A DNA stretch of 20,000 bases. Source: an uncultured virus (IMG/VR IMGVR_UViG_3300042480_000533) (taxonomy: Duplodnaviria; Heunggongvirae; Uroviricota; Caudoviricetes). The stretch lies in IMG/VR virus record IMGVR_UViG_3300042480_000533; one strand, given 5' to 3'. Below are positions 2-18,140 of the stretch, in pieces; position 1 is the first letter of the stretch; every line of letters begins with the position of its first letter. The position numbers and the translations under genes are program-made. Below the pieces are notes generated by a model that saw only the letters and a program-made list of their open reading frames with translations, had not been told where the DNA came from and did no database searches.

Positions 2-3000
2 GCGATTAACGCTTCAAAAGAAAAGCTAAGAAAAGTATATCAAGAAAGAATCAACAAAGCTGCGGCAATCATGGCCAAACATGACATGTCAAACCCAGGT
101 ATCCGAAGCGATCCCAAGATTCAAGACGAAATCAACATCGCTTTAATGGGTGACAAGAAAGCCTATGAGACGCATCTTATGTTGTTTACACTTGCAAAAA
201 GAGCAGCCACTCCATTCAAGATGTTTACGGATGCGGAAACAGTAGCCATGCACTCTGCGTTGGCGGGGCAGTACATTGACGAATCAGACATCATGCCATT
301 TGTCGGCAAGACATTGTTCCACGCAATGGGTTCTGAACTAGCCAGCGGACGACACCACATGTTTGGTAGTTATGACTTTGGTCCACAGGGTCCAAAGGAA
401 GCCCAAATCAGGGTATTGCATGGCAAGGAAAAGAACAAGTACGGTATCTGGGATATCAACGAAGTGTATGAAAGCAAGGAACGCGAACAAGCATATCGCA
501 AGGCATACGCAATGCAGATCATGCTAGACCTTGTTCCTAACTATTACCACCCAGGATATGACCCAGACAAAGAAAGCATGGAAAACTACTTTGACGCAAT
601 GAAAAAGCGATCAAACCTAGAACGCCTTGCTCAGGTCAATGCAATTAGAACCCTTGAACAAGCAAACTCAGTATCCCCCAATGATCCCGAATATGAGAAT
701 ATCCAAGAAACCGCCAAGAAACTAAGAAAGAGTGGCTTTGAGGAAAGATTGACTTGGGTTCGTAATAGCTATGGAAGGGATAACAAAAACCCTGTTGTAC
801 TTGATCCAACCGTGTCTGGGTTGGCTGCACTACGGCCACGGTACGCCAACATGGATTATACCCAGCGTGGCATGTATGCCTTGATTGAGGTAATGAAGAG
901 TCGTGAAATTCGACAGAATGAGATGTTCCAAAAGAAGAAACTATTGACGGCAGCTCCCCAGGATGGAGACCCAAACTCAATCATTCCATCTAGGTTCCGT
1001 GGATTTGAAAAGACAACCGATAAAAAGAACCTACCTTATATTCCACATCAAACTGGAAACATGGTCACTAGTCTTGTTATGTCACCTAATCGGGAAACAG
1101 AACTAGAGGCAATCAAGCTCAGAAACAGCCTGACATACTTTGCCACGCAAAACGGTCTTGAGTCGTTGCTGGAAAACAAGGAATGGACTAGGTTGTGGAT
1201 GATCAGGGAATGGAGGCGGCAAGGCTTGGAGAAGTCGGTCAATGTTATGAAGGACCAGATTAACAACGGCATCTTGGATATGTTCCCATCCCGTATTGCC
1301 ATGTATGAATCTGTCTTTAAGCTTATGGGTACCAATGCAAGAGCATACAGCCCAGGACAAACCTACAGCGTGTTGGACCTTATGGCAAAGCCAGAAGAAA
1401 TCCGATTCACAACCAAAGAGATGGATGAACTAAGGAAAAACTTCCCTGATGGTCTTCGCTACATGGATTTGCTCAGGCATCTATCAACCAGATTTGACCG
1501 TCTAGAAGGACTAAAGCCAGAATTCCCACTAGTGCTGGAACCAGGACTTATTGTTCGTGGAGAACAAGGGCTAATCAAGGGAACACCCACATACAAAGCC
1601 CTAAGCGTATTTAACATCGAAACCAACAACAATACAGTCATGATGCTCATGATGAGCGACTTGTTTGAAAAAGAAGCGCAGGAAGTCTATAGGTCCGATC
1701 CTGACTTTGACAAGTTCCCAAGAGACTCCGCTGGAAATCTTGTGCTGTCTATGCTTCCTGCTGACAAACTAAAGTCAGAAGAAATTCTTGACAGAGTCCT
1801 GAAGAAAGCTCCGCAACTTGCTGCCGAGCTTGGTACTCAAAAGGGTGTTTATTTTGTTCTTCACAAAGAACACCTAGACGGTATGGGCAAAATAGCCAAA
1901 GAACTTGTCACACCAGGACAAAGCTTGTTGGACATCAAAACTAAACTAACAAACATGGTTCATGTCTTTAGTCAGGTAAACAACCCAGACACTTTGTGGT
2001 ACTTTACACCAGACATGGTAATTCAGTTCCTCAATTCACTCAGGAATAATCCAGTTATTTCTGCGGCTGAGCTAAGCTGGCAAACACACAAGACAGTCGG
2101 TTTTGCAAATACAGAAACAGATATCCTTGTCTTGGAACAGCAAAAACAATTGATGGATAATGTCGGTCGTAGCGTAGACCTTACCCACCAAGCGTTGGTA
2201 TTGCTTCATACCGTAGACCCATCAAGCAACGAGAATGCTTTGCTGTATAGAAACAACTACAGAAGAAAAGACGCATTCGGCAAACCATCTGCAACCCTAG
2301 ATGCAACCATGTACCTAGGAAAGACATTTGACATGGAAGTAACCGTGGGTGGTAAATCACGCATGATGAAGAATGTACCTCTTGAAACCGCCGTGTATGC
2401 TACGGACATCTTGGCAGCAATGTCAAAAGCAAGAAAACTTGGTATGGACAAAGAAGCCGACGAGCTTGGTGAGTTCCTGCTGGCCGAGATGCAAAACTCA
2501 AGTGTAAAGATCGAAACAAACAAGGCACTAAGGATCAACAACACCCAGCATATTGTCATCAAGGCTGCTGTTCTTAAGTCAAGACTAGAGGGTATAAAAA
2601 GCAATAGAGTAGAAGGTGTCAAAGACACAATTATGTCTACCCTACAGACGGAGATTACCCAAGAAGCTGCGAACAAGGTATACAAAGCCGCAACCAGAGT
2701 ATCTCGGCTTTTGCAGAAGATTGCAGATGCCGTACCTGGTGAAAACCAGCAAATGACATATGTAGCCCACGCTTTGTTGTCAAAGATGGAAAACACAGAA
2801 GACGGAATCGAAGACAACACCGAGATTCAAAACAAGATCCTGGATGCTGTCGGAGTGGACAAAACAGACAAAGAAAGAAGCAAGGCGGTCAGGGCAATCA
2901 TTAATGCACGGCAAGACCTTACTACCGTACCAGAAGACAGACCCTTTACCCACCTACCGTGGGATGCCCGAAAGGATGTTGCAAAGTTTGCTGACCGTGA

Positions 3001-6000
3001 TGAGTTTATCAACGCCTTTGGGGATGCTGGTCGTGGCATCGTAGCTCAGTTGGATGGCATGGTAGCCATGAAACTAATGTCTCGTCGTGTTGCCGATATG
3101 AAGATGATCCTCATTGGTTCCTTGGCATCAATCAACCCAAACATCCTGTCAGATCTTGCACTAGAGGCAATGGAGTTTGATGGCCACACCTATGCCAAGA
3201 TGGCTAAGCTTAAGGGCAAATACACCATTGGTCTAAACATCAAGGCCATGGAAACAACACCAGAAAACGAAATGTTGCTTAAGTTTGCGGAAGAACTTGT
3301 TCACCTTGCCCGAGTCAAGTACATGGCCGAAGGTTCCAACGAATACAGAAAGATCCAAGCAATCTTTAGAACACCTAACTCGGAAGAAATGATCCGAGAG
3401 ATGTTGTTTGCCATGAACAGGGACAAGCCATATGCTGCTATCGAAGCAGATGTTCGGTATGCCATGGAACACACGGACGAGTTCTTGGCTCACTGGGGAG
3501 CTGTCGTGTTGCTGGCCGAAACAGTCTACAGCGAGGAAACGATGTCTGCTCTTGAAGCAAAGTATACCCCAGTAGAAATGCTTAATACATGGTACAAGAA
3601 AGCGTTCTTTAGGATTAAGAGCATTGCCGTCCGAAGTTTGAAAATGGTAAGCCAAATCGCAGTTGATCCGAAATACGCCGCTAATTTCAACGAAATGTAC
3701 AATGTAATGCAGGGAATAATCGGCCAAGGTATGGCAACCCGAGTAGACGCTGGAAACCCAGACACGGCATTTAACGCCGTCAAGTCAATTAGACCCAACT
3801 CTACAGAAGTAACACCAAGCATGGTGACAGACCTTCAGCGGCTCAGCATTGAGTTAAGAAATCTTAATAACAATATAGCAAAGAAAATCCCGTTGTCTCC
3901 CACTGAAAAAATGCGTCTAATTGAAATTGAAGACATCACCAATAACAAGGAAATGAATCCACACGGTATTCTTGATATGACTGAGTTTGATGTCATTCGA
4001 GAAATGGAGAATGTAAACAGAGCGGAAGACGGTGCTATTGTCAGGCTAGAAACCCAGCCGCTGACCGAGCGAGCCGTTTTACAACGGGGTCTTACAAACC
4101 ACCTTGCAGCCAGAGGATCACGTATTGACCAGAACGAAACCTTTGGTGGCTTGTTTAGAAACATTGCAAGTTCTTTAGGGTTGGATGACTTTGTAAGTTT
4201 GACAATCCAGAACAAACTGCTTGCTTCCATTAACGACAGCCAGCTAACCTACAACTCACCCGAAGGCATTTTGGTACTGATTTCCGAAATGATTGACAAC
4301 ACAACCGTAACTACCGAGTCAAGCTACAGACCATCCAGCATTGGTGGTGGGTTTGAGTTTAACAAGGAAGGTCTCAAGGGATATGTAGGGGATATCTGGA
4401 ATGTAGCCACAGGTATCGACAGCAAGTACAAGTCAACCGTAAAAAAGGAAGAAGTATCAAACAATACAGCCCTAATTTTAAACAGCCTACCAACTACAAC
4501 TACTGATTTAGAGATCAGGCGGGATGCGGAGCGTCTTGCTGAAAAGATCAAGTTGTTTAACGGTCAGTTGAGGAGTTTGTTGGTAAAGTCGAGAATCAAG
4601 GACAGGGGAGACAACTTAGATCCAATTGGCCTTAAGACGAGAAGATCTACAAAGCTAAACAGGGAAGACAAGGATCGTGGTCGTAAGGCAGTTGTAAACG
4701 CTATGCGTACCAAGTACACAAACAACCTAACGACCAACGGTGTTGATGCCGTTGTAAACCCCTTTATGTTGTTTATGAGCGGTAATATGCTTGACCCAAG
4801 CATGGACACCATCGGTGTGTCTTCGTCTGAGTTTGCTACAGATCTTCGTAAGTTTACCGATAACCCAAACGATACGGCAGACAACGCAAGAGAAGCCATG
4901 GCCAAGCAGATCGTCAATGATGCACTAAGCATCAAGCTCGGTAGAGAAAAGAACTATAATGCAAGCACGACATTGGATGATGTCAAAAACAGCGCCCGCA
5001 TAAATCCTGGTTATCTCAATGAAGATGTAATTGAAGCTACTAGAAGATTCATTATCAGAACAAGAGAAAACACCCAACGATTCAGCACGGCTTTCAAGCA
5101 CCTAAGTAAGCCTGAGATTGAATTGATTGTCAAATCGGTCATTGAAACCGTATCCCAGACAAGACCAGATTCTTTGACAGCCGAGAAGATCAGGCAAATC
5201 CTGGACAACCGCGAGTCATTCGGGTATTACCAAGGTTTATCTCCTTACATTCCAGAAAGCCATGTCACGGCTACCCCAATGGACATTCTTACCGACCAGT
5301 TCCTAGGTAAACTAGGAGCAACCGCATACTTGTTCTCAGAGGGTGGTCCAGACCTAACCTATAAGGACATCTTCCTAGATCCCGTAAAGCCAAGTGAAAG
5401 CGGCATCCTACAGGTAATGTTTGAAAAAGACCTGTCCAACATTCAGCAAAGCTTGATGCGTGGTCAAGGGTATGACGCTATTCAGAGAATTGTTGTCCAA
5501 AAGACAATGGGAATCGAAGGAGCATACTTCAGTATTTCTCAGTTGATTGATATGTTTAAACGACAAATCTCAATGGAATCAAGTGCCGAAGCCAAGCGCA
5601 TGGGTGTCAGAAACTTTGACAACAGAGGAGATGACGAAACAAGAGCAACCATAATTATGCGTGGCCTAGAAAGACTAGACGCGGCCAACCAAAAAGCCAA
5701 GGAAACATTGGGTACACGGCTAGAAGGCAAGCCTCTTATTGATTTCTTAAATAAGTATGGACCAATGGCAACAACCCTTACTTACGGGCCAAATGCCGCA
5801 TTGGCTACATCGTTGGTAGAAGGAACCATGTCCACGGTCAATGAGCTAATGCGGGGTCACAATCCGTTTACATTCTTGATCGAAGCAATTAGGATGAATG
5901 TCGAGACATCTGTTGGAACTGCATCCAGAGTCGTGTCAAGAAGAGATGGTCGTTTCTCATGGTTTAATGTAGACCCGTATGTTCTCAGTAAGGTAGCCGA

Positions 6001-7438
6001 GAATGCTTTGTGGATGTTTGAGGAAACCACATCTCCCATGATTCCAGGCCAGTTGGTCAGCAACGCGCTGTCTACGGCAGAGATTGAAGACATGTCCAGA
6101 TGGGACAGATTCCTAGCGTTTTCCAGAAGGTCATACTCAGATCCAATGAGATCCCTAAGGGTTGCGGCTGAGAACCAAGCCAACAGAGGTATCTACCAAA
6201 GACTGCATGACGGCAGTCTCCTTAGATTGCGGGACAGCGTTAACAAGATCCTAAGAGACAACCCATCCCCAAGCAATCAGGTATACCGAGAGGTAGCCAG
6301 AGATGCTGGTGTAAGGATGGATGTCGAGTTGATGGCAATCTATGTACGGTCTGGCATCTTTGAGCCAGGTGTCATAGAAACCCTGAACTACGCCAGATCC
6401 AGTGCTCCACCAGAAACAGGCAAGATTCTATTCAGCGTCATGGCAGACCTAGAAGCAGCCCTGCCACCTGGCGGCGTGATCTACGATGGTGTTGTAATCA
6501 CACCAGAAAGAATGCTGGCGGCAAGAACGACTTTGGCATCCTTGAGCAGACAGTATGCTGGACTCAGCATTGTCATGGATCACCCATTGGATGGTACGGC
6601 GGCAGCTTCGGCTACCAGTGTTGTCATAACATTCTTCAAGTCATATCCAGCATTGTTCATGGCTCAGCATGTAATGCGTCAAGGTACGATTACCCCCATG
6701 CTTCGGCATGGTGCCAGGTTGTTGCTGCACGGTATGCTAGACATGATTTACAACATCCTGCTGGCCTTGTCAAGCGGTTGGTACAAATGGGAAAAGTTGA
6801 TGGACCATCTTGAAAAAGGAACCATCAGCAAAGCAGAAGCAACAAAGCTGTTCCTAAGGCACCCAGTCTTTAGTATGAACATTCTTGGTATTGTTACACA
6901 AAGTCTTAGTAAGCTTGCGCTTCCTTCTGGCAGAGACAACAGCATGATTAGTTCAGTAGGCGAAGTAGCCTTGGCTCAACAGGTAAGCAATATATTCAAA
7001 GCAGCTGAGTCATGGTACTACTATGCGTATGACAAGGTACCAGCCGAAAGCGCAGCAGCGTCTACCTATTCGGCATTGCGGGGTGCGTTGTCGTTTATTC
7101 CAGGCAACACCATGGTTCGCCTTACCCTGCAACAAGCATTTGGTCAGGCAGGAACCACAGGAACCGCAGGAACAGCCTCGGCAAAGACAATGAGGTATAT
7201 TGACAGACTGACAGATGAACGGCCAGTTCTTGAGGCAGTACGCAGCATGTTCCCAGGGGGTCTTAAGAACCCCAAGAGAACCGTGTCCGAAGAACCACGG
7301 CAAATTAAGATGACCGATATCCCCAAGGTAAGGCCACCATCGGGTGAACCACAGCCAAAGGTAACTACGCCAACAACAAGATCACCGAGTATCCAAGAGC
7401 AAGCAACCACGCCACTGAAGGCTCCGTCTGGTCTGTAG
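2..7438 (+). CDS. Giant phage virion/DNA-ejection protein, 5'-partial (>2478 aa); internal degenerate zincin-like motif; C-terminus reminiscent of T7 gp16-type internal virion proteins
   Basis: The frame is open from nt 2 through ATG 71 to TAG 7436-7438. No Cys in the 2455-aa translation. EELVH at 3290-3304 with downstream DEFLAHW at 3476-3496. FFKSYP near 6632 and a C-terminal FIPGN are reminiscent of the QFKxF and LP/VP-N motifs of gp16-like proteins. Confidence 0.6.
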   Translation, partial: AINASKEKLRKVYQERINKAAAIMAKHDMSNPGIRSDPKIQDEINIALMGDKKAYETHLMLFTLAKRAATPFKMFTDAETVAMHSALAGQYIDESDIMPFVGKTLFHAMGSELASGRHHMFGSYDFGPQGPKEAQIRVLHGKEKNKYGIWDINEVYESKEREQAYRKAYAMQIMLDLVPNYYHPGYDPDKESMENYFDAMKKRSNLERLAQVNAIRTLEQANSVSPNDPEYENIQETAKKLRKSGFEERLTWVRNSYGRDNKNPVVLDPTVSGLAALRPRYANMDYTQRGMYALIEVMKSREIRQNEMFQKKKLLTAAPQDGDPNSIIPSRFRGFEKTTDKKNLPYIPHQTGNMVTSLVMSPNRETELEAIKLRNSLTYFATQNGLESLLENKEWTRLWMIREWRRQGLEKSVNVMKDQINNGILDMFPSRIAMYESVFKLMGTNARAYSPGQTYSVLDLMAKPEEIRFTTKEMDELRKNFPDGLRYMDLLRHLSTRFDRLEGLKPEFPLVLEPGLIVRGEQGLIKGTPTYKALSVFNIETNNNTVMMLMMSDLFEKEAQEVYRSDPDFDKFPRDSAGNLVLSMLPADKLKSEEILDRVLKKAPQLAAELGTQKGVYFVLHKEHLDGMGKIAKELVTPGQSLLDIKTKLTNMVHVFSQVNNPDTLWYFTPDMVIQFLNSLRNNPVISAAELSWQTHKTVGFANTETDILVLEQQKQLMDNVGRSVDLTHQALVLLHTVDPSSNENALLYRNNYRRKDAFGKPSATLDATMYLGKTFDMEVTVGGKSRMMKNVPLETAVYATDILAAMSKARKLGMDKEADELGEFLLAEMQNSSVKIETNKALRINNTQHIVIKAAVLKSRLEGIKSNRVEGVKDTIMSTLQTEITQEAANKVYKAATRVSRLLQKIADAVPGENQQMTYVAHALLSKMENTEDGIEDNTEIQNKILDAVGVDKTDKERSKAVRAIINARQDLTTVPEDRPFTHLPWDARKDVAKFADRDEFINAFGDAGRGIVAQLDGMVAMKLMSRRVADMKMILIGSLASINPNILSDLALEAMEFDGHTYAKMAKLKGKYTIGLNIKAMETTPENEMLLKFAEELVHLARVKYMAEGSNEYRKIQAIFRTPNSEEMIREMLFAMNRDKPYAAIEADVRYAMEHTDEFLAHWGAVVLLAETVYSEETMSALEAKYTPVEMLNTWYKKAFFRIKSIAVRSLKMVSQIAVDPKYAANFNEMYNVMQGIIGQGMATRVDAGNPDTAFNAVKSIRPNSTEVTPSMVTDLQRLSIELRNLNNNIAKKIPLSPTEKMRLIEIEDITNNKEMNPHGILDMTEFDVIREMENVNRAEDGAIVRLETQPLTERAVLQRGLTNHLAARGSRIDQNETFGGLFRNIASSLGLDDFVSLTIQNKLLASINDSQLTYNSPEGILVLISEMIDNTTVTTESSYRPSSIGGGFEFNKEGLKGYVGDIWNVATGIDSKYKSTVKKEEVSNNTALILNSLPTTTTDLEIRRDAERLAEKIKLFNGQLRSLLVKSRIKDRGDNLDPIGLKTRRSTKLNREDKDRGRKAVVNAMRTKYTNNLTTNGVDAVVNPFMLFMSGNMLDPSMDTIGVSSSEFATDLRKFTDNPNDTADNAREAMAKQIVNDALSIKLGREKNYNASTTLDDVKNSARINPGYLNEDVIEATRRFIIRTRENTQRFSTAFKHLSKPEIELIVKSVIETVSQTRPDSLTAEKIRQILDNRESFGYYQGLSPYIPESHVTATPMDILTDQFLGKLGATAYLFSEGGPDLTYKDIFLDPVKPSESGILQVMFEKDLSNIQQSLMRGQGYDAIQRIVVQKTMGIEGAYFSISQLIDMFKRQISMESSAEAKRMGVRNFDNRGDDETRATIIMRGLERLDAANQKAKETLGTRLEGKPLIDFLNKYGPMATTLTYGPNAALATSLVEGTMSTVNELMRGHNPFTFLIEAIRMNVETSVGTASRVVSRRDGRFSWFNVDPYVLSKVAENALWMFEETTSPMIPGQLVSNALSTAEIEDMSRWDRFLAFSRRSYSDPMRSLRVAAENQANRGIYQRLHDGSLLRLRDSVNKILRDNPSPSNQVYREVARDAGVRMDVELMAIYVRSGIFEPGVIETLNYARSSAPPETGKILFSVMADLEAALPPGGVIYDGVVITPERMLAARTTLASLSRQYAGLSIVMDHPLDGTAAASATSVVITFFKSYPALFMAQHVMRQGTITPMLRHGARLLLHGMLDMIYNILLALSSGWYKWEKLMDHLEKGTISKAEATKLFLRHPVFSMNILGIVTQSLSKLALPSGRDNSMISSVGEVALAQQVSNIFKAAESWYYYAYDKVPAESAAASTYSALRGALSFIPGNTMVRLTLQQAFGQAGTTGTAGTASAKTMRYIDRLTDERPVLEAVRSMFPGGLKNPKRTVSEEPRQIKMTDIPKVRPPSGEPQPKVTTPTTRSPSIQEQATTPLKAPSGL

Positions 7439-7468
7439 AAAATCGGCTTAGGGGTCGAGAATTTTTGT

Positions 7469-7506
7469 GGGGGTAATAGTAGCTTATGGTAAGCTATTTC
7501 CCCCCC
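7469..7506 (+). terminator. Hairpin just after the giant gene (possible terminator or processing site)
   Basis: TAGCTTA-TGG-TAAGCTA core, extended by outer GGGGG/CCCCC arms. No U-tract follows. Confidence 0.4.
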
Positions 7507-7513
7507 TCACCCC

Positions 7514-7552
7514 CAAGGTGTACCTGTGCACCAACGCCCCACAGGAAGAAAG
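7514..7552 (+). repeat. 39-bp upstream element, copy 1 (candidate phage promoter/leader)
   Basis: caaggtgtacctgtgcaccaacgccccacaggaagaaag; 38/39 identical to 7782-7820. Contains a CCTGTG/CACAGG stem and runs into the RBS of the next gene. Confidence 0.85.
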
Positions 7553-7560
7553 GACATGGA

Positions 7561-7722
7561 ATGTTCTACTACAAGGTAATGAATGAGTTCGGTATGTTCG
7601 TGGATTCGGAGTCTTTCGAGACCGCCGAGGCCAGAGACAAGGCGTTGGCCTTGAAGAACTTCGACTCGTACTACATTATCTGGGTTGGCCAGGAGGGCCA
7701 GCCCGCCAAGCAAATTCAGTAA
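7561..7722 (+). CDS. Small hypothetical early protein (53 aa, MFYYKV...)
   Basis: AAAGGA RBS upstream, C/G-ending codon bias like the RNAP gene, followed by a terminator hairpin. Confidence 0.7.
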   Translation: MFYYKVMNEFGMFVDSESFETAEARDKALALKNFDSYYIIWVGQEGQPAKQIQ

Positions 7723-7734
7723 AGCCCTACTGTC

Positions 7735-7770
7735 GCCCCTCTAGGAGCAATCCTAGGGGGGCTTTCAGTT
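7735..7770 (+). terminator. Intrinsic terminator-like hairpin
   Basis: GCCCCTCTAGGA-GCAA-TCCTAGGGGGGC: 12-bp stem (one G-U), GNRA loop, then TTTCAGTT. Confidence 0.7.
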
Positions 7771-7781
7771 GCGCTTTGCAA

Positions 7782-7820
7782 CAAGGTGTACCTGTGCACC
7801 AACGCCACACAGGAAGAAAG
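7782..7820 (+). repeat. 39-bp upstream element, copy 2
   Basis: caaggtgtacctgtgcaccaacgccacacaggaagaaag, ending 9 nt before ATG 7830. Confidence 0.85.
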
Positions 7821-7829
7821 AAAGACAAC

Positions 7830-8048
7830 ATGCTTAGAGATTTCAATAACAAAACCGCACCAACGCCGTCTGGTCTGGACCCGTTCGACTACTACTGGGG
7901 CGGGCGCACGGACGCCAACCTGGAGACGGGAGAGTGGAAGGAGATCTGGCACAGCTCCTTCCGAAACCCATCGAAGGATCACGACATTGTGATTACCTTC
8001 GGTGCAGACGGCAAAATCATTTGTAAAGAAAGGCGCGACGGATTCTGA
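7830..8048 (+). CDS. Small hypothetical early protein (72 aa, MLRDFNNK...)
   Basis: ATG downstream of repeat copy 2 and a purine-rich RBS; codon usage matches the module. Confidence 0.65.
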   Translation: MLRDFNNKTAPTPSGLDPFDYYWGGRTDANLETGEWKEIWHSSFRNPSKDHDIVITFGADGKIICKERRDGF

Positions 8049-8060
8049 TCTGACCGACAA

Positions 8061-8164
8061 CAAACCCTCCATGCTCTTTCAAGGGAGAGCATGGGGATGT
8101 TTGCTGTTGCAAACAACCCTGGCTTGTGGGGATCACAAGCAATCAAGTCTTGGCAATGCCAAGA
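8061..8164 (+). promoter_or_regulatory. Structured leader of the RNAP gene (consecutive hairpins; possible RNase III site or terminator)
   Basis: CCATGCTCTTTC-AAG-GGAGAGCATGG long stem; TGTTTGC/GCAAACA; GCTTGTG/CACAAGC (8122-8140); TCTTGGC-AAT-GCCAAGA (8148-8164). Confidence 0.5.
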
Positions 8165-8178
8165 GAAAGGTAGATTCC

Positions 8179-9978
8179 ATGAATATCATGGATCTCATGG
8201 GCGAAAGCCTTAAGGTGGTATTCGGTGGGCGTTCGATGTCCTTCGCTACTGCGGCGATGAACGCGATGAAGATCGCGTCAGCCGTGGAAACGGAGGCAAA
8301 CGAGCCACCGAACAAGACCTGGGAGCGCAGCAAGATGCTGCTCCAGGAACTGATCTCGGCGGGGGTGCTTCACACCACTCAGATCAGTAACCCCACCACG
8401 GGGTTGGCACAGACCTACTGTGCCTTCACGGAAGGCTTCGCACTTCGGGAGTTCCGCAGAGAGCCGTGCCTCAAGGAAGAGGATCTCCTTACCACCTTTC
8501 GGACGGCGGGTGTTCTCAGCTACCTCGGTAGCTGTGGGATCCGCATCAACCCCGAGGTTGTGGCGTTCATCCGCCGCAACAAGGATCGGTACGAGAAGAC
8601 CGATTCCATGGGACGGAGGGTCACACCCCCGTCCCTGTTCCTCAAGGACGCACAGTCCTTGGAGAACGAGGAGGATGACCGCCCGATCTACATGGACTAC
8701 AAGAGTCCTGACGGTCGGCGCTTCTATGCACTTCACAATCGGTTTACCCACCAAGGTGCCGAATGGATGCGTGGCTCTGTGGATGCGGCTGAGGAGAAGC
8801 CGATCAAGCCCGAGGACATTGACGATGCGTTCAACATCGTCAGTGAAGAGACTGGCGTGACCCGTACCAACTGGCGCGCCATCCTCAAGGACGAGTCCCT
8901 GTGCTTCACGGGCAAGCACTTGGGCCTCAAGACCAGCAAGCCCGCAGCGGTGTACCGTGCTGCTCTCTTCTTCAAAGAAATCCTGGAGAAGGGACGGTCT
9001 GCGTACATCATCCAGCAGGACCAGACTTGCTCAGGGTTCCAGATCATCGCCATGCTGCTGGCATGTCGAAACCTGATGACCTTGACGAACCTGAACGGAG
9101 GCACGAAGCAGGACTTCTACACTGCTTCGTCGGATCTGGCAAGGGGCATGTATTCGGGTGAGTTCTTCCCCGAGTGCTTGTTCATCCGCAGCGGTGCCAA
9201 GTACTTTGTGCTTCGTATCGGCTACGGTGCGGCCACATCCTCGCTGGCACGGGGTCTCATCCTTACTAACCCGCAGGAGAGTCCCGTCCAGTACCTGAGC
9301 GAGGAGGGCGCATTCATTCCTGGAGTCCTCGACAAGCTCCCGATCCAGGACCTCAACGAGGACTACTACGAGATGTGGAAGTCCCTTGGGTGGAAGCGAG
9401 CGGTGGAGGTCAGTCAGCAGACCTCCAAGGCATACTACAATGCCATCATGCAGATCAGCCCCAAGCTGAGGTGGTTCCTGTCCAGTATGAAGCTGGCGAA
9501 CAAGGTCGCTCTTGACCGTGGCGAGTTCTTGTCGTGGGAGCCAATCCTAGGTGAGGTCAAGAAGAATGTCCGCTACACGGCGGACTGGAAGGCCAAGCCC
9601 CGCAAGGTGCAGTTCTTCGACAAGAACGGGAAGGAGTTCTATGTGAACATCCATCCCTTCATGAAGGATGCGGCGGCAAGCGCGGCTCCTCCGTGCTATG
9701 TCCACAGCTTTGATGGTGCAACCATCATGCTGGTGGTGGAGATGTGCAGGGAAATCGGTATCCCCATATACCCGATCCACGACTCCACCGGTACCACAGT
9801 GGACAACTTCAAGAAGGTGAAGCAGATGTGGCTGGATGCCACGCGGCACATCTTCTGCTACGGTCCCTCTCCGTTCTGGGATGTTGTCAAGCGGTACAAC
9901 CTCCCAGTTCCTGCATCTCTCTTTCCCAATGGGCAACCAGACCCCATCGATGTCTGGGGCGAGCACTTTATGGGTTGA
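8179..9978 (+). CDS. Single-subunit (T7/T3-family) DNA-dependent RNA polymerase, compact 599 aa
   Basis: Motif A QDQTCSGFQ (Asp at 9019; T7 DGSCSGIQH). Motif B RSGAKYFVLRIGYG (Rx3Kx7YG, 9187). APPCYVHSFDG (T7 APNFVHSQDG). Motif C IHDSTGT (Asp at 9781). DGRRFY...FTHQG (T7 DWRGRVY...FNPQG). GAAAGGT RBS before ATG 8179. Confidence 0.93.
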   Translation: MNIMDLMGESLKVVFGGRSMSFATAAMNAMKIASAVETEANEPPNKTWERSKMLLQELISAGVLHTTQISNPTTGLAQTYCAFTEGFALREFRREPCLKEEDLLTTFRTAGVLSYLGSCGIRINPEVVAFIRRNKDRYEKTDSMGRRVTPPSLFLKDAQSLENEEDDRPIYMDYKSPDGRRFYALHNRFTHQGAEWMRGSVDAAEEKPIKPEDIDDAFNIVSEETGVTRTNWRAILKDESLCFTGKHLGLKTSKPAAVYRAALFFKEILEKGRSAYIIQQDQTCSGFQIIAMLLACRNLMTLTNLNGGTKQDFYTASSDLARGMYSGEFFPECLFIRSGAKYFVLRIGYGAATSSLARGLILTNPQESPVQYLSEEGAFIPGVLDKLPIQDLNEDYYEMWKSLGWKRAVEVSQQTSKAYYNAIMQISPKLRWFLSSMKLANKVALDRGEFLSWEPILGEVKKNVRYTADWKAKPRKVQFFDKNGKEFYVNIHPFMKDAAASAAPPCYVHSFDGATIMLVVEMCREIGIPIYPIHDSTGTTVDNFKKVKQMWLDATRHIFCYGPSPFWDVVKRYNLPVPASLFPNGQPDPIDVWGEHFMG

Positions 9979-10004
9979 TTGAATCAACCAGAAGGGACAG
10001 AACA

Positions 10005-10493
10005 ATGAAGGTTATCGTTAAGTCTATCGGTAAGGGTGTCAAAGACCTCAACGCTGAGGTCGGGCACATCCCAGGTACCCAGTCGGGTACCACCCAGGTC
10101 TTCGTCCGCGAAGGTGACAAGATCAGGGTTCTCATCGACCTCGCTAACAAGAGCACCAAGTCTGCCTTCTGGCAGAAGAAGTTGGTGCAGAACGAGAACG
10201 GGTTGTTCGTTCTCCTCAGCAACGAGACCCCCGCTCAGGTCTTTGGCCATGAGCTGGTCATGGAGAAGAAGGACACCCAGTACCGTCTGGGTGTCAAGGT
10301 GACCGACAAGGAGGGCACCAAGCTCGGTGTCTTCTACGGTCCCATCGCCAACAGCCCCGAAGAGGCCAAGACTCTGTTCTGGTCCACATGGAACATGAAG
10401 GAACTCAATCCCTTTGTTCCCGAGGATCGCAAGACGGTGCATCTCCGCCTCACCGTAATGGGGTACCGCACTCAGGAGGTGGCCTCCTTCTGA
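10005..10493 (+). CDS. Hypothetical protein (162 aa) directly downstream of the RNAP
   Basis: AGGGA RBS, ATG 10005, strong C/G3 codon bias, beta-strand-like Lys/Val-rich sequence. Confidence 0.8.
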   Translation: MKVIVKSIGKGVKDLNAEVGHIPGTQSGTTQVFVREGDKIRVLIDLANKSTKSAFWQKKLVQNENGLFVLLSNETPAQVFGHELVMEKKDTQYRLGVKVTDKEGTKLGVFYGPIANSPEEAKTLFWSTWNMKELNPFVPEDRKTVHLRLTVMGYRTQEVASF

Positions 10494-10513
10494 CAGAATA
10501 GATAGAGCAGCAT

Positions 10514-10850
10514 AACCCCTTCGGGGTTTCTTGTGCCCCCTTTGGGGTACATCTGCCCCCTTCGGGGCCTTGGCTATAGGCCCTTCGGGAGTCATTCGAC
10601 CCTTCGGGACCTTGGCTGACCCTTCGGTGTGTGTGCCTGTGGGGGTCACTATCATCATTGGGTAGTCCCCTATGGGATATTTGCATTATTGCGTATACGC
10701 CCCTAGGGGGCTTTAGGCCCTTCGGGACCCCTACGGGTACCCTTCGGGCGTTAGAACGCCCTATAGGCGATCCTAGGGGCATTAGAATGGATGTGGTAAT
10801 CTCTTTGGGGAAGTGTTTCCCTTGGGGGTTACCTGTTTTTCCCCTTGGGA
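10514..10850. repeat. Array of short CCC-N3/4-GGG palindromic mini-hairpins
   Basis: CCTTCGG at 10518, 10559, 10582, 10601, 10621, 10719 and 10741, with a CCTTTGG variant at ~10539 (about 20-nt period), plus CCCTATGGG, CCCTAGGGG, CCCTACGGG, CCCTATAGG and CCCTTGGG variants. Confidence 0.75.
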
Positions 10851-11043
10851 CTGCCATAACATGTCATGTGACTGCCATTTCATGCCATATTGGCACACCC
10901 ACGCCCCAACGCACGCGAGATCCCAACACCAACGCGCCTTCGGCGTGCGGGCAACTCTAAGTTGCCCTTGGTGAGAAAATGTCAGGGTGATTGTCCACAG
11001 CGCGTATACTGTGACAATGACCCCCATTGCAAAAGGACAGAGA

Positions 11044-11304
11044 ATGGCAGATATCAATGAAGCAGCCGCAAAGTTGGCGGCATTCGGAGTGACCGTGACC
11101 ACCCAGCCCGTGAAGCGGGAGACGCGGGTGGTCGATCCCCTGAACAGGGCCATCGGTCTCTTGGCTGCGGCCAAGAACCCCAACCTCTCGGAAGAGAGCC
11201 GAGCAGCCGCCATGGCCCGCCTTGGCACTTTGCTCGACAGCCAGCCTGGGCTGGCATCCAGCGTGTCGGCTGTGGCTGAGAAGCAAGCCAACAACGGTCG
11301 ATGA
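11044..11304 (+). CDS. Hypothetical protein (86 aa, MADINEAAAK...)
   Basis: AAAGGA RBS, Ala-rich helical product, preceded by a long hairpin at 10985-11023. Confidence 0.7.
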   Translation: MADINEAAAKLAAFGVTVTTQPVKRETRVVDPLNRAIGLLAAAKNPNLSEESRAAAMARLGTLLDSQPGLASSVSAVAEKQANNGR

Positions 11305-11308
11305 AGCA

Positions 11309-11559
11309 GGACCTGAGCATGTCATAAAACTGCTCAACTTTACTAGGACGGGTTAAGCCTAGTGCGTTCACATGGTAACATGTGGGGTCCCGATTGCTAC
11401 AACCGTGGCAACTGTAGACTTGAAACACCTACAGCAAATATTGCCAGTTTCAACGGTAATGGGCTAACAAACATGGGATACTTAAACCCACATTCCATGT
11501 TTGGCAGGGTTATATAGGGTTACATGGGGCCATCTAGTGGAAACGCTAGGTGGTCTTTT
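11309..11559 (+). ncRNA. Putative structured non-coding RNA element A
   Basis: No credible ORF. Pseudoknot 11310-11336; hairpins 11341-11364, 11367-11386 (GUAA loop), 11412-11434 and 11440-11460 with complementary loops, 11468-11503; ends in a terminator. Confidence 0.5.
11528..11559 (+). terminator. Intrinsic terminator
   Basis: GGCCATCTAGTG-GAAA-CGCTAGGTGGTC followed by TTTT. Confidence 0.7.
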
Positions 11560-11571
11560 ACAGGAGGTGTC

Positions 11572-11691
11572 ATGAACGACGAAGTCAAAAAGCTGTTGGA
11601 TCAGCGAGAGATCTTGATCGACCAGATCAACATCCTACAAGCCGAGCTGTTAAAGCACGGTATCCCACTCCCGCCTGTACCAGAGGTTTAG
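11572..11691 (+). CDS. Small coiled-coil-like peptide (39 aa, MNDEVKKLLDQREILIDQINILQAELLKHGIPLPPVPEV)
   Basis: Strong AGGAGGTG RBS; below the ORF-track cutoff; translated by hand. Confidence 0.6.
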   Translation: MNDEVKKLLDQREILIDQINILQAELLKHGIPLPPVPEV

Positions 11692-11700
11692 TTCTCTGAC

Positions 11701-12120
11701 GGGCATTCTCCCCGCAAGGGGAAAGCCCACATAGGGCACCGCAAGCAACCTAGCCTATAGGCGGTTTATAAATAGTAGGACACCCTTTTGTTGTGGGTTT
11801 GGGAATAATCACCCCAAGCCAACCGAGCCTGAATATGCTCTGGTTATCAAAACTATTCTGGACTAAACGCAGCCATTGTCTGCAAAGACATAGTTTGGGC
11901 TGTATAGAACTTTGTTGTGGATAAGCCCCAACAAATACGCCGTCAAATTAGCGGTACACTCTAAGCCTGCACTAGAGGGTGATACTTCTCCTAGGTTGCA
12001 GCAGGAGCGGATATGGTTGCTGGCAAACCATATCTTGTTGAAAGGAGGCCACCGTGTTACTCCGAGCGGGCAATTCGGAGTTCCTTATAAGATGTACTCT
12101 GGTGTACAGAGTGCGCCTTT
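11701..12120 (+). ncRNA. Putative large structured non-coding RNA element B (~420 nt)
   Basis: Long-range pair GCAACCTAG (11745-11753)/CTAGGTTGC (11991-11999), GCAA-tetraloop hairpins, pseudoknot 11821-11858 and at least six further hairpins. Confidence 0.55.
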
Positions 12121-13021: not shown

Positions 13022-13261
13022 ATGGGTGACAACATCCGAATTGCTCTTTGGGAAGTCAACAGTGAGAATCCCAAGAGTCCTAAGTTCAATGGCATCGTGA
13101 CCATTGATGGCAAAGAAATCAAGGTGTCGGTATGGGATAACAAGGATGCTCAGCATCCCAAGGCCCCCCGACTCAAGGGCAAGACCTCGCGTCCTGCGCC
13201 TATGGCGGAAACGGCAGAACCTGAGACCCTGGATTCAGTCCAGGCACCTTTGCCTTTCTAA
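13022..13261 (+). CDS. Putative small ssDNA-binding protein (DUF736/Drc-like pattern)
   Basis: NPKSPKFNGIVTIDGKEIKVSVW beta-rich core, acidic/Pro linker and C-terminal LPF tail typical of phage SSBs. Confidence 0.55.
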   Translation: MGDNIRIALWEVNSENPKSPKFNGIVTIDGKEIKVSVWDNKDAQHPKAPRLKGKTSRPAPMAETAEPETLDSVQAPLPF

Positions 13262-13276
13262 TAACAATACATATAA

Positions 13277-13398
13277 GGGGAGTACTTAGGTTGACCTAGG
13301 ATACTCTAGGAGTTATAACATATAGTTATAATACTACTTAGGTAATATACCTAGGTAACCTAGAGTCCACGGTTAAACCTAAGTACTCCCCATTTTTT
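13277..13398. repeat. Nested palindrome with a 16-bp perfect terminal inverted repeat, followed by a T-tract
   Basis: GGGGAGTACTTAGGTT (13277-13292)/AACCTAAGTACTCCCC (13376-13391); inner ACTCTAGG/CCTAGAGT, TTATAAC/GTTATAA and TACTTAGGTA/TACCTAGGTA. Confidence 0.8.
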
Positions 13399-13407: not shown

Positions 13408-13650
13408 ATGACTTTTAACCATAGACTAAATGTAACTCTAGAACAGGAGACCTATGATGTCCTAGTTCTTGTAGAAGGTGTTGTGATTCCTGAACCTTAT
13501 GGTTCTGTGGACAGATACAATCCAGTTGTTCTTTCCTTTAAGATCCTTAACCAAGACAATCCTGTACTGTATGATTTAATCAACACTATGTACATGTCTC
13601 AGCTGGAAGAAGCTGTAAGCAACAACTTTATTGGAGTAAATAATGAATAA
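13408..13650 (+). CDS. Hypothetical protein (80 aa)
   Basis: ORF track; overlaps the start of the next gene. Confidence 0.6.
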   Translation: MTFNHRLNVTLEQETYDVLVLVEGVVIPEPYGSVDRYNPVVLSFKILNQDNPVLYDLINTMYMSQLEEAVSNNFIGVNNE

Positions 13651-14017
13651 GAAAATTGCAGACATGTGGTGTGCAGCCCTACGGAGTGGGGAGTACACCC
13701 AAGGCAGGGGATCTCTTTGCACTGTGAATGACAACGGCAAGAAGTTTTGTTGCTTGGGTGTCCTTTGCGAGTTGTACAAGCAGCGCGACCCATCAATGGA
13801 TGTACGCTACTCATGGGCCACTGCCGATAGCAAATTTGTTTTATACAACTCCTATTCATGTAACCTTCCGCCAGAAGTTTGTCTATGGAGCGGTGTTAAA
13901 ACCCAGCTGGGATTCCGATGCAAAAATGGAAAAAGCCTTGTTCACCTAAATGATTCAAGTTATTTTTCTTTTGATCAGATCGCCAATGTAATCGAAGAAG
14001 AATGGGAGACACTGTGA
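13643..14017 (+). CDS. CCLGVL-family paralog 1
   Basis: WCAALRSGEYTQG...FCCLGVLCELY...LND...SFDQIANVIE; GGAG RBS. Confidence 0.85.
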   Translation: MNKKIADMWCAALRSGEYTQGRGSLCTVNDNGKKFCCLGVLCELYKQRDPSMDVRYSWATADSKFVLYNSYSCNLPPEVCLWSGVKTQLGFRCKNGKSLVHLNDSSYFSFDQIANVIEEEWETL

Positions 14018-14361
14018 ACCAAGAAATTAAGAATCGCTGGATTGACGCCCTCCGTAGTGGTGACTATGAGCAAGGTAAGAATTACCTGTGTAATAGGAAC
14101 GGTAGTGGAGGCAGAGAGTGGTGTTGCCTCGGTGTTCTCACCGACTTGTACCAGAAAGAAACAAACAACAAGCTTATTGCTACTGGTGACAATCCATGTA
14201 CTTTTGGTGCAGTTGTGTATGGTAATTCATGTCAGTTTCTTTCATCAGAAGTTCATGAGTGGGCTGGTCTTACCATCAAGCAGGTTGATGTGTGCATTAA
14301 ACTTAATGACACATATAGTGTAGGCTTTCAAGGCATTGCCGCTGTGGTTGATACTTGGTAG
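14014..14361 (+). CDS. CCLGVL-family paralog 2
   Basis: GTG start overlapping the previous TGA; WIDALRSGDYEQG...WCCLGVLTDLY...LND. Confidence 0.85.
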   Translation: MNQEIKNRWIDALRSGDYEQGKNYLCNRNGSGGREWCCLGVLTDLYQKETNNKLIATGDNPCTFGAVVYGNSCQFLSSEVHEWAGLTIKQVDVCIKLNDTYSVGFQGIAAVVDTW

Positions 14362-14380
14362 CAACCAATGGAGACAACAA

Positions 14381-14725
14381 ATGAAGAAAGAACTTAAACA
14401 AAAGTGGATTGATGCTCTCCGTAGTAAAGACTATCGACAGACAACCAACTGTCTTCGCCACAGAAGTGGGTATTGTTGTCTTGGTGTCCTTTGTGACATC
14501 GTGGATAACACCAAATGGTGTTCAAATGGACAGCAAGGATCAATGTACTACTTTGATTCAGGCTATGAAATTGCGTTTCCAGAAGAGTCTTGGTTGAACA
14601 CGATTGGTCTGCCAAAGGATAATGCTAATGCTTTGGCTAGAATGAACGATGAGGGCTTAGAATCATTTGAAAACATCGCGGATTGGATCGAAGAGAATGT
14701 GTTCGTAACTAGTGAACAACCTTGA
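14381..14725 (+). CDS. CCLGVL-family paralog 3
   Basis: GGAG RBS; WIDALRSKDYRQ...YCCLGVLCDI...MND...SFENIADWIE. Confidence 0.85.
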   Translation: MKKELKQKWIDALRSKDYRQTTNCLRHRSGYCCLGVLCDIVDNTKWCSNGQQGSMYYFDSGYEIAFPEESWLNTIGLPKDNANALARMNDEGLESFENIADWIEENVFVTSEQP

Positions 14726-14741
14726 TGTAATTGACACCTAG

Positions 14742-14814
14742 GCTTCGGTAACTCAGTTGGTAGAGTATCGGACTTTTAATCCGTTAGTCGCGGGTTCGAG
14801 TCCCGCCCGAAGCA
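14742..14814 (+). tRNA. trnK: tRNA-Lys, anticodon UUU (CCA not encoded)
   Basis: Acceptor GCTTCGG/CCGAAGC+A; D arm ACTC-AGTTGGTA-GAGT; anticodon loop CT-TTT-AA (TTT at 14775-14777); T arm GCGGG-TTCGAGT-CCCGC. Confidence 0.95.
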
Positions 14815-14828
14815 TTACAGGAATTCTT

Positions 14829-15101
14829 ATGTATAGACACAAAGCTAGAAAAGAATCATTTCAAGAAGTTAGGGAAACATGCCCACATGTTGATGCTGCC
14901 TTGGTAAGTGTTGCAGAAACAATCAAAGAACAACTTGATGTGTCTTTGCAGATGGCAGAAAGAAACATTAAGAAACAAACAGAAGCTCTTCGTGATGCTT
15001 TGATTGAGGCTTTTGATCGAGCACTCACAGCGGAAGACCAAGTAGCGGAGCTAGAAAACAGAGTTGCAGAACTTGAATCACAACTGGAGAATCATGCCTG
15101 A
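14829..15101 (+). CDS. Hypothetical coiled-coil protein (90 aa)
   Basis: ATG after the tRNA with an AGGA RBS; heptad-like C-terminus (VAELENRVAELESQLE). Confidence 0.75.
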   Translation: MYRHKARKESFQEVRETCPHVDAALVSVAETIKEQLDVSLQMAERNIKKQTEALRDALIEAFDRALTAEDQVAELENRVAELESQLENHA

Positions 15102-15297
15102 CATAATGAAACGATACCTTGTGTTTGGGTGGGAGTTTCACGAACAACGTGGTGGATTCCATGACTTTCTACGAGATTTCTCTTCCCAAGACGAAGCATA
15201 CCTTTATGCAAAAGCCACTAAGGAATCGCATAAGATAGATGAGTATCAAATTTACGATACCTATAGTGGACAAATCCTAACCCCAGGAAGATATTAA
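15094..15297 (+). CDS. Hypothetical protein (67 aa)
   Basis: GGAGA RBS; overlaps the previous stop. Confidence 0.7.
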   Translation: MPDIMKRYLVFGWEFHEQRGGFHDFLRDFSSQDEAYLYAKATKESHKIDEYQIYDTYSGQILTPGRY

Positions 15298-15298
15298 C

Positions 15299-15553
15299 AT
15301 GACCCCTAAGTACCCAGACATTACCGTTAACCTTGACAATGTGGATGGAAATGCCTTTGCTGTAATGGGTGTTGTCACCCGTGCATTAAGGAAGCATGGT
15401 GTTTCCAAGGAAGAGATTGATGCATACCGTAAGGAATCAATGAGCGGAGATTACGATAATCTCCTGCAGACTATTCCTAAGTGGGTCAATGTCGAGGGGG
15501 GATACCCCGACGACGACGACAATGACTATGATGATCGACAGTACAACTTCTAA
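15299..15553 (+). CDS. Widespread phage hypothetical protein (DGNAFAxMG...SGDYDNLL)
   Basis: Recognisable DGNAF/SGDY motif pair, acidic tail, 84 aa. Confidence 0.8.
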   Translation: MTPKYPDITVNLDNVDGNAFAVMGVVTRALRKHGVSKEEIDAYRKESMSGDYDNLLQTIPKWVNVEGGYPDDDDNDYDDRQYNF

Positions 15554-15566
15554 AGGATACTGATCA

Positions 15567-15953
15567 ATGAAAAAGAAGATTGCAGATATGTGGGTTAATG
15601 CCCTTCGTTCTGATGAATACAAACAGGGTTATCGTACGCTTTGTCGTGTTAACTATGACAACAACTCTAAGACCTATTGTTGTCTTGGTGTTCTTTGCGA
15701 TTTGTATCAGAAGAATCAAACAAAGAACAAAAAGAAAAAGCTTAGCGTGAAACCCGAAACAACTGGTTCTACCGTTATTGCTTTCGATAGCAATAGTGGT
15801 GTACTCCCCCAGGCAGTACAGAATTGGGCTGGAATGTCTTCTTTCAATGGACACATCCCAGGTGGTGGTCCTAATCTCGTTAAAATGAACGATAATGGAA
15901 AGACATTCATTGAGATTTCCGACCAGATCGAAAAGCATTACAAGGAGCTGTGA
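15567..15953 (+). CDS. CCLGVL-family paralog 4
   Basis: WVNALRSDEYKQG...YCCLGVLCDLY...LPQAVQNWAG...MNDNGKTFIEISDQIE. Confidence 0.85.
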   Translation: MKKKIADMWVNALRSDEYKQGYRTLCRVNYDNNSKTYCCLGVLCDLYQKNQTKNKKKKLSVKPETTGSTVIAFDSNSGVLPQAVQNWAGMSSFNGHIPGGGPNLVKMNDNGKTFIEISDQIEKHYKEL

Positions 15954-15954
15954 T

Positions 15955-16485: not shown

Positions 16486-16748
16486 TCACCAAGGTTGCTC
16501 AGTCTTATATCTATTACGAAGATAAACTCTTCTACATATCCACCATTAACCGTCAATCGTCTGCAATGATTACTGATCCTCCTTGGTACACAGAAACTTT
16601 TGTATGGGAGCTTGATCCTAATAACCCAACTAATGTTGGTGATCTTGTTCATGAATCTAGTTCAAACTTTATGAACGATATCACCAGTCACTTTGAAACT
16701 TGTATGCAATTCTTTGAGAATGGGAAAGCAAACAAAGAAGATGAGTGA
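16482..16748 (+). CDS. Hypothetical protein (88 aa)
   Basis: ATGA overlap with the previous gene. Confidence 0.7.
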   Translation: MITKVAQSYIYYEDKLFYISTINRQSSAMITDPPWYTETFVWELDPNNPTNVGDLVHESSSNFMNDITSHFETCMQFFENGKANKEDE

Positions 16749-17573: not shown

Positions 17574-17586
17574 AGGGGGTAAATCC

Positions 17587-18130: not shown

Positions 18131-18140
18131 GGAGTAACAC

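Follow-up and report, generated by a model that had tools for sequence, protein, structure and literature searches.

Among the smallest described members of the T7 family of RNA polymerases (RNAPs) is RNAPII of phage N4, which is reported to total 673 amino acids (aa; PMC4496689), to have a reduced N-terminal domain and to need the ssDNA-binding protein gp2 or Drc (PMC4496689, PMC7145618). In the account given in PMC4496689, every phage with a virion RNAP (vRNAP) has a heterodimeric RNAPII, the N4 mini-vRNAP, a domain of 1,106 aa within a virion protein of 3,500 aa, uses hairpin promoters together with the host single-stranded DNA-binding protein (SSB), and mitochondrial RNAPs depend on factors for promoter melting (Table 1 of that source). 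Here we describe a gene at 8179..9978 (+ strand) of a 20,000-nt stretch of DNA from an uncultured virus (IMG/VR record IMGVR_UViG_3300042480_000533; the whole stretch analysed is called the window below). It encodes a compact single-chain T7-family RNAP of 599 aa which keeps the catalytic motifs of the family and in which, similarly to N4 RNAPII, most of the N-terminal domain is gone.

The gene lies in a long + strand frame (8002..9978) that would yield 658 aa from a GTG codon, while the ATG at 8179 yields 599 aa. The ATG is backed by the homologue P0002, which is also 599 aa long and 93% identical, and agrees with the 14-sequence family alignment; on inspection of the sequence, a Shine-Dalgarno-like GAGAAAGG with an AAAGG box (8163..8170, +) stands 8 nt 5' of it. 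With the T7-like single-subunit RNA polymerase profile of Pfam (RNA_pol, PF00940) the protein scores 43.7 bits (cut-off 22), and RPOL_N is without a match at E<=0.1, as a preliminary description of this gene had anticipated. RPOL_N was likewise without a match in all three compact enzymes scanned, and control scans with the same profile gave 120.7 bits for T7 RNAP and 28 bits for the canonical RNAP that these phages also encode. In addition, the protein matches PHROG phrog_414, 'RNA polymerase' (E 5.3e-20, profile positions 378-760 of 816), and the sequence profile of the compact RNAP matches T7 RNAP at 3.4e-10. Comparison with the L002 orthologue gives a ratio of nonsynonymous to synonymous substitution rates (dN/dS) of 0.10 (dS 0.41, dN 0.042), indicating purifying selection. 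Judged from its sequence, 8179-9978 certainly encodes a real, selected, compact T7-family RNAP, with DNA-dependent RNA synthesis as its predicted activity.

The preliminary description had read this protein as an intact miniature single-chain enzyme, and the catalytic motifs indeed stand at the residues it gave. Invariant in 14/14 family members are D178/R180/R181/Y183 (PDGRRFY), D281 in QQDQTCSGFQ (motif A), R337/K341/Y349/G350 (motif B, R-x3-K-x7-YG) and H534/D535 (motif C, HD). MAFFT pairs D178 with T7 D421, R181 with R425, D281 with D537, R337 with R627, K341 with K631, Y349 with Y639 and D535 with D812. Across the larger alignment used for phylogeny, the motif C Asp is found in all 164 members, and very few lack the motif A Asp or the motif B Lys/Tyr. 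The altered DxxGR motif (DGRRFY) noted before is genuine: T/DxxGR is present in the variant form D178-G-R-R181, one residue shorter than T7 D421-W-R-G-R425, with its D and R invariant in the family. The altered His of CSGxQH, also noted before, holds for the window enzyme, which has Ile at that position, and fails as a family trait; Ile is found in 3/14 members (the window enzyme, P0002 and P0003), Glu in 1/14 and His in 10/14, so that the change is subclade-specific. G286 occupies the motif A position of T7 G542, and together with Y349 and H509, the latter equivalent to T7 H784, we take it to be a ribonucleotide-selecting residue. The whole protein is 284 residues shorter than T7 RNAP: 243 residues fewer before DxxGR, where about 240 had been estimated earlier, 13 fewer from DxxGR to motif A, 34 fewer from motif A to motif B (56 vs 90, the same figures as first read), 13 more from motif B to motif C and 7 fewer after motif C.

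An AlphaFold2 model built from a 14-row alignment has a mean predicted local distance difference test score (pLDDT) of 84.2 and a predicted TM-score (pTM) of 0.82. The top matches of the model among PDB entries in a Foldseek search are the human and yeast mitochondrial RNAPs and T7 RNAP, with E-values of 5e-16 to 1e-12. Aligned with VIA-align, model residues ~52-599 superpose on residues 250-883 of T7 RNAP elongation complexes (Z 26-30, 446-471 residues aligned, root-mean-square deviation 4.0-4.7), residues 2-598 on the N4 mini-vRNAP (Z ~18) and residues 212-599 on residues 5-404 of N4 RNAP2 (6dt7_B; Z 16.7). The right-hand polymerase fold is common to the model and T7 RNAP, and the T7-family placement of the preliminary description is borne out in structure from model residue ~52 on. 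In the predicted structure, palm and fingers are retained, the thumb is shortened, a basic beta-hairpin (the loop near residues 465-497) stands where T7 has its specificity loop, and about 100 residues appear where T7 has its ~300-residue promoter-binding and melting domain. These first 100 residues are modelled as three helices and a beta-hairpin at 64-83 (pLDDT 58-87), which the aligned ranges alone cannot equate with, or distinguish from, the intercalating hairpin of T7.

The small size is a property of the family and not of this copy alone. In a word-indexed homologue search that permitted lengths of 329-1049 aa, all 13 close homologues measure 580-601 aa, which speaks against the truncation or assembly artefact that the preliminary description had allowed for. 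In an exhaustive profile search, 2,504 representatives reached E<=1e-3; of these, 262 had <=1e-10 and 26 had <=1e-30, the last all measuring 572-663 aa. For phylogeny, eight references (the window enzyme, the compact enzyme of contig G004, four companion RNAPs, T7 RNAP and N4 RNAP2) were aligned with 156 of the 161 stored proteins, giving 164 sequences; P0001 (the GTG-extended query), four proteins of <380 aa (P0041, P0044, P0071 and P0142) and N4 RNAP1 were left out. The tree was computed with FastTree under LG+gamma from 359 columns running from the DxxGR motif to the C-terminus, with midpoint rooting and SH-like supports. Its sample is biased toward the query because it was drawn from the best 150 matches to the compact-enzyme profile, and some short tips may be gene fragments.

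The window enzyme belongs to a core clade of 15 tips (support 0.94, 580-601 aa), to a clade with the G004 enzyme of 20 tips (0.998, 580-663 aa) and to a whole compact clade of 61 of the 164 tips (0.98, 476-663 aa). It falls outside both the N4 RNAP2 clade (20 tips, support 1.0, with split forms of 398 and 404 aa, one of 451 aa and single chains of 561-671 aa) and the canonical clade of T7 and the companion RNAPs (60 tips, 441-1265 aa), whose own support is weak at 0.52. Single-chain members occur within the N4 RNAPII clade too, and the compact clade includes smaller predicted proteins of 476-560 aa, so that, on predicted lengths, the 599-aa enzyme is not the smallest form. With hhalign, the C-terminus of N4 RNAP1 maps to residues 111-208 (E 0.012) and N4 RNAP2 to residues 220-354 (E 4.5e-4), which places the N4 split point at residues ~208-220. 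The window frame is open there and encodes a single 599-aa chain, in agreement with the earlier statement that this is no split heterodimer like N4 RNAPII.

Against 50,697 phage records, tblastn with the window enzyme gave one match, to an uncultured marine fosmid phage at 22.7% identity, and clade members P0043, P0017 and P0035 matched solely canonical RNAPs there (22-26%). Full-text literature searches, which left most subscription journals outside and are not proof of absence, returned nothing on compact single-chain T7-type RNAPs and no description of a T7-like phage with two such RNAPs. No cultured-phage member was found, and within that scope the suggestion of an undescribed lineage has stood: on alignment and tree evidence, the compact enzymes are a large uncultured clade distinct from both N4 RNAPII and the canonical T7 group.

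Five IMG/VR loci encode relatives of the compact RNAP. A giant same-strand open reading frame (ORF) ends ~0.7-1.9 kb 5' of the compact gene in 7/7 cases (the window, G001-G005 and G009). A PF00940 scan of the contigs showed that G001, G002, G004 and G005 also carry a canonical RNAP of 812-823 aa (267-285 bits), located 8-14.5 kb downstream of the compact gene; G003 and G008 end too soon for a downstream canonical RNAP to be judged. Four further contigs (G006-G009) come from another compact subclade, that of P0017, and G006, G007 and G009 each encode RNAPs of 595-605 aa and 809-815 aa. In G009, which has direct terminal repeats, a 3,946-aa ORF ends ~870 nt 5' of the compact gene. The order of compact gene and then canonical 809-823-aa RNAP on the same strand, 7.5-14.5 kb apart, is found in 7/7 contigs that extend far enough downstream (G001, G002, G004-G007, G009). 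No locus of the P0043 subclade turned up in the scan of viral contigs. No cultured phage RNAP is more than 29% identical to the canonical companion.

The host phages are ~65-71-kb T7-supergroup lake phages. The contig G004, at 68,574 bp and 100% complete by CheckV, is a T7-supergroup podovirus by PHROG annotation, with a T7-type gene order. Besides a gp2.5-like SSB, a T7 gp4-like primase/helicase (phrog_239, 6.6e-157), DNA polymerase and exonuclease, it encodes portal, scaffold, capsid, tail tubular proteins A and B, fibre and terminase; next come proteins of 1,318, 1,511 and 4,172 aa without a family and then the early region with the compact RNAP. The compact gene was found in several independent lake-water contigs, and DNA of the window recurs in lake-water runs, 12 of the 24 listed holding at least half of the sampled words (four of these 12 may be the window's own source). 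Contigs from two metatranscriptome libraries span 8118-9653 and 7513-7720, the latter identical to the window; because DNA can be present in such libraries, these contigs cannot show transcription and are at most a weak hint of expression. All of the read runs were contigs, which carry no transcript ends, strand or expression level and in which uncovered regions have no meaning. The RNAP is 93% identical to that of L002 but the giant protein only 61%, which suggests module exchange. GC content is 57% in the compact RNAP gene, 46% in the giant gene, 43% in the downstream paralogues and 64% at 19037-19929, and base composition is mosaic along the window (7000-12000 vs the rest, and 19037-19929).

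The giant gene that precedes the compact RNAP gene in all relatives examined enters the window as its C-terminal 2,478 aa (2..7438, +). Full-length versions measure 3,946-4,172 aa and are found at L023 2326-14466, L024 2911-15342, L020 108-12626 (-), L022 303-12821 (-) and L037 3190-15030 (-); the window's own is probably P0162, of 4,058 aa. The protein is nearly free of cysteine, with 0/2,478 in the window part, 2/4,172 in G004 and 1/3,946 in G009, to be compared with 0/3,500 in N4 vRNAP and 10/599 in the compact RNAP of the window. The absence of cysteine is reported to be required for passage of vRNAP into the cell (PMC3821669). Within the giant protein, a string K-EFL-K-GAITPAF-Y-SAG-..-GI (K-x3-K-x7-Y-x2-G-x2-G-I) resembles motif B of N4 vRNAP, R-GIA-K-NPLTITI-Y-GSG-AR-GI (R-x3-K-x7-Y-x2-G-x2-G-I), a resemblance that may serve as a lead only. 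Its nearest ESM-Atlas clusters carry LPD39, LPD38 and LPD1 domains, and DEDD-exonuclease-like motifs in its N-terminal third are backed by sub-threshold RNase_H_2 matches alone.

Neither the window part nor the full-length relatives matched anything in Pfam or PHROGs above those sub-threshold RNase_H_2 hits, and there was no match of the giant profile to PDB sequences or, by tblastn, to the 50,697 phage records. With hhalign, E-values were 0.27 against N4 vRNAP, 0.28 against the mini-vRNAP domain, 0.13 against the compact RNAP family and 0.44 for eight giant proteins against eight N4-like vRNAP domains. A candidate motif A Asp loses its invariance once a distant member is added, and an AlphaFold model of residues 1150-1850 of the G001 giant (pLDDT 48.8) was unusable and was not taken into a fold search. 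Because all of the statistical tests for a polymerase failed and the model was unusable, we regard the giant as a probable virion or ejection protein, which might nonetheless include a polymerase.

Between the giant gene and the early genes lies a conserved noncoding element of ~75 nt (7436..7520, +), in which a AATCGNCTTAGGGGTC box is followed by a variable hairpin with two G-runs and two C-runs around it. It has 31 invariant columns and is present in 7/7 contigs examined, where the proteins are only 21-37% identical; the other copies lie at L002 9076-9160, L003 8400-8484, L004 8031-8115, L005 8624-8708, L006 8597-8681 and L037 2464-2548 (-). Its consensus fold pairs the G-runs with the C-runs, and because most of these pairs never vary, the folded structure is predicted and not proven. 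The element may be a genome end, a packaging site or a primary early promoter.

Upstream of each early gene, the RNAP gene included, stand a strong hairpin that has a T-run and, after it, a small hairpin of the GTTGC..GCAAC type. Before the RNAP gene this intergenic unit spans 8067..8114 (+), with a 13-pair hairpin at 8067-8096, found in a scan for terminator-like structures, and GTTTGC-TGTT-GCAAAC at 8099-8114; like units precede early genes in L002-L006. It is a candidate terminator plus promoter, or an RNA-processing site. Two small ORFs without a Pfam or PHROG family stand upstream. The 59-aa ORF (7543..7722, +), which has a 97% identical copy in L002, is preceded by the first copy of a 39-nt repeat (CAAGGTGTACCTGTGCACCAACGCC...AGGAAGAAAG; 7514..7552, +), and the 53-aa ORF (7831..7992, +) by the second (7782..7820, +), which follows a hairpin at 7735-7762 and GTTGC-GCTTT-GCAAC at 7768-7782. 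The copies are 97% identical, and their core 16-mer has two exact occurrences vs 0.11 expected. The cassette of the 53-aa ORF is missing from some strains; in lake run X5 one contig passes directly from 7779 to 8112, without this unit, and L002 lacks it as well. The joint falls within the repeated GTTGC..GCAAC hairpins, which points to recombination between them as the way in which cassettes are gained and lost. Elsewhere, TTACAATAG occurs three times in G004 (reverse-complement 45022, 54924 and 61507), each time 15-25 nt before a start codon, where ~0.26 occurrences are expected on one strand. It resembles the T7 promoter core and may be a promoter of the canonical RNAP; because three occurrences are too few, we have not assigned it to either polymerase.

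Downstream of the RNAP gene, a candidate for a small ssDNA-binding factor is encoded at 13022..13261 (+). This 79-aa protein is 52-99% identical in 4/5 loci, the fifth (L004) ending before this position, and is more conserved across loci than the compact RNAP (52-99% vs 27-93%). It has a weak match to phrog_18154, 'single strand DNA binding protein' (E 6e-4), and no match of its family to PDB sequences was found. Its tail, (L/I)PF and in the window LPF, follows a Pro- and acid-rich linker. The C-terminal tails of bacterial SSB and T7 gp2.5 resemble such an LPF tail. A complex prediction for the compact RNAP and the 79-aa protein scored 0.00, which counts neither for nor against binding. Directly 3' of the RNAP gene, at 10005..10493 (+), a poorly conserved 162-aa ORF without a Pfam or PHROG family found tblastn matches only in L002 (90%) and, weakly, L004. 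It is followed at 10494-10633 by an array of ~6 short GC-rich hairpins of the CCCTTCGGG type, whose loops are mostly TTCG, with TTTG in the second. An AT-rich stretch at 13276-13395, with 16-nt inverted arms GGGGAGTACTTAGGTT and AACCTAAGTACTCCCC and several CCTAGG palindromes, may be an origin or have a regulatory role. Seven paralogous ~120-aa genes of PHROG 18067 (function unknown) lie among other small ORFs at 13643-18835 (+), and L002 holds at least seven copies. A tRNA-Lys (anticodon UUU) at 14742-14814 (+), in the early/middle region, is the sole Rfam match and accounts for a spike in read depth there.

As to function, we give roughly even odds to the compact enzyme being the first polymerase of a two-polymerase relay, probably with help for promoter opening. 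It would be made first, its gene being the first large one to follow the giant gene and the conserved noncoding element, and would transcribe the early-to-middle region, probably including the canonical RNAP gene, after which the canonical ~810-aa T7-like RNAP would take over the later genes. This order is favoured because the gene consistently heads the early region and precedes both the canonical RNAP and the replication genes, and because the melting domain is lost. A sigma-70 scan, which found three sites vs 4.4 expected and none on the + strand in 7300-8200, also speaks for it. Because most of the N-terminal domain is gone, the enzyme probably needs help in opening promoters, which could come from a small accessory protein, with the 79-aa SSB-like protein as the best candidate, or from pre-melted or structured DNA as for N4 RNAPII. 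We infer the timing, the regulon and the cofactor dependence from these features of the locus. More tentatively, and with the odds against it, the compact enzymes might form a third, unrecognised branch of phage single-subunit RNAPs, dedicated as first polymerases of the relay in large T7-supergroup phages and acting as single ~65-70-kDa chains with their own promoter specificity.

Several observations weigh against the relay. Circularly assembled contigs do not fix genome ends, so that we only infer the compact gene to be the first into the cell. Exact k-mer and 3-mismatch searches in the complete G004 recovered only hairpin-terminator repeats, and no repeated promoter class could be assigned to either polymerase. 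The hairpin units could be RNase III-type processing sites instead of promoters; the T7 early region has such sites. The sigma-70 scan is of the E. coli type and may miss promoters of the actual host. Finally, the segment at the specificity-loop position has a net charge of +4 in the window clade, compared with 0 in T7 and -1 in N4 RNAP2, and such a basic loop would suit direct, factor-independent DNA recognition. This last point belongs to the main alternative, for which we see perhaps half the chance given to the relay: a self-sufficient, promoter-specific mini-polymerase that would use the basic specificity-loop hairpin and a small N-terminal helix-hairpin module to recognise double-stranded promoters of its own, without a cofactor, and would serve a separate regulon (e.g., small-ORF cassettes) in parallel to the canonical RNAP. 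The charge is +4 to +5 in 6/7 of the window and G004 clade members listed, and the N4 RNAP2 loop is reported as too acidic for DNA binding (PMC7145618); the modelled beta-hairpin at 64-83 after three helices and the 39-nt repeat before two cassettes point the same way. However, the region of the T7 AT-rich recognition loop and most of the melting domain are gone (the alignment starts from ~T7 250, and RPOL_N is without a match), and the repeat exists in two copies only and not before other genes.

The remaining explanations are considerably less probable. T7 RNAP and mitochondrial RNAP make primers or R-loops at origins, and the compact enzyme might mainly do likewise at the phage origin instead of making mRNAs. 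For this speaks that the canonical RNAP could cover all transcription, that the AT-rich region with inverted arms lies downstream and that N4 RNAPII alone is reported to transcribe only single-stranded DNA, without specificity (PMC4496689); we nevertheless hold a primer synthase to be improbable, as the phages encode a T7 gp4-like primase/helicase and the compact gene heads the early region, outside the replication module. A shade less probable again is that the enzyme is an unsplit N4 RNAPII orthologue in an N4-like scheme, with the giant protein as a virion RNAP reading hairpin promoters. The hhalign matches of both N4 subunits, the superposition of 6dt7_B, the near absence of cysteine and the motif-B-like string in the giant protein and the hairpin units before early genes all fit such a scheme, but the enzyme lies outside the fully supported N4 RNAPII clade, the gene set is T7-like and not N4-like, the giant protein is without a Pfam, PHROG or PDB match and reaches only E 0.44 against the vRNAP domains, and its candidate motif A Asp is not invariant. 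As for the possibility that truncation, decay or misassembly has shortened a normal T7-like RNAP here, the 284 missing residues and the GC content of 57% vs 43-46% in neighbouring genes could be cited in its favour; we consider it very unlikely and already contradicted, since the size is kept in 13/13 homologues and across the 61 clade members, the catalytic motifs are invariant, dN/dS is 0.10 and the gene recurs in independent contigs.

A clade of 476-663-aa single chains with every catalytic motif lowers the known size limit for the fold and provides natural test cases for promoter recognition and opening without the T7 N-terminal domain. If they do have their own promoter specificity, these would be the smallest natural single-chain promoter-specific RNAPs, and in practice both in vitro transcription and orthogonal expression could profit from small single-chain RNAPs with new promoters. 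The pairing of a compact with a canonical single-subunit RNAP in one T7-like genome is a layout that we did not find described in the searchable literature, and it uncouples polymerase reduction from the correlation of virion RNAP plus heterodimeric RNAPII that is stressed for N4-like phages. If the giant cysteine-free protein also hides a polymerase, there would be three phage-encoded polymerases per phage.

Compared with known systems, the compact enzyme shares its fold, catalytic residues, single chain and PF00940 match with the RNAPs of T7 and the Autographiviridae (~780-900 aa), with which it coexists, in canonical form, in the genomes of its relatives. It differs from them in the ~243 fewer residues before DxxGR, the missing RPOL_N match, an A-to-B spacing shorter by 34 and a best identity of 22.7% to any cultured phage RNAP. 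Mitochondrial RNAPs (POLRMT, Rpo41) are its top Foldseek matches (E ~5e-16), but these are eukaryotic proteins of 1,100-1,350 aa with large N-terminal extensions. N4 mini-vRNAP (PDB 2PO4, 3C2P) has the T7-like fold (Z ~18) and likewise comes from a phage with more than one single-subunit RNAP; beyond the fold, no sequence relationship to the compact enzyme is detectable. N4 RNAPII (gp15, RNAP1, 269 aa, and gp16, RNAP2, 404 aa; PDB 6DT7) is likewise a minimal T7-family enzyme, its N-terminal domain and thumb strongly reduced, has a nearly equal A-to-B spacing (59 residues vs 56) and is likewise encoded among early genes. In contrast to the compact enzyme, it is a heterodimer split between DxxGR and motif A, its specificity-loop segment is acidic where that of the compact enzyme is basic, and it is encoded in an N4-like genome, whereas the compact enzyme is a single 599-aa chain from a separate clade in a T7-like genome.

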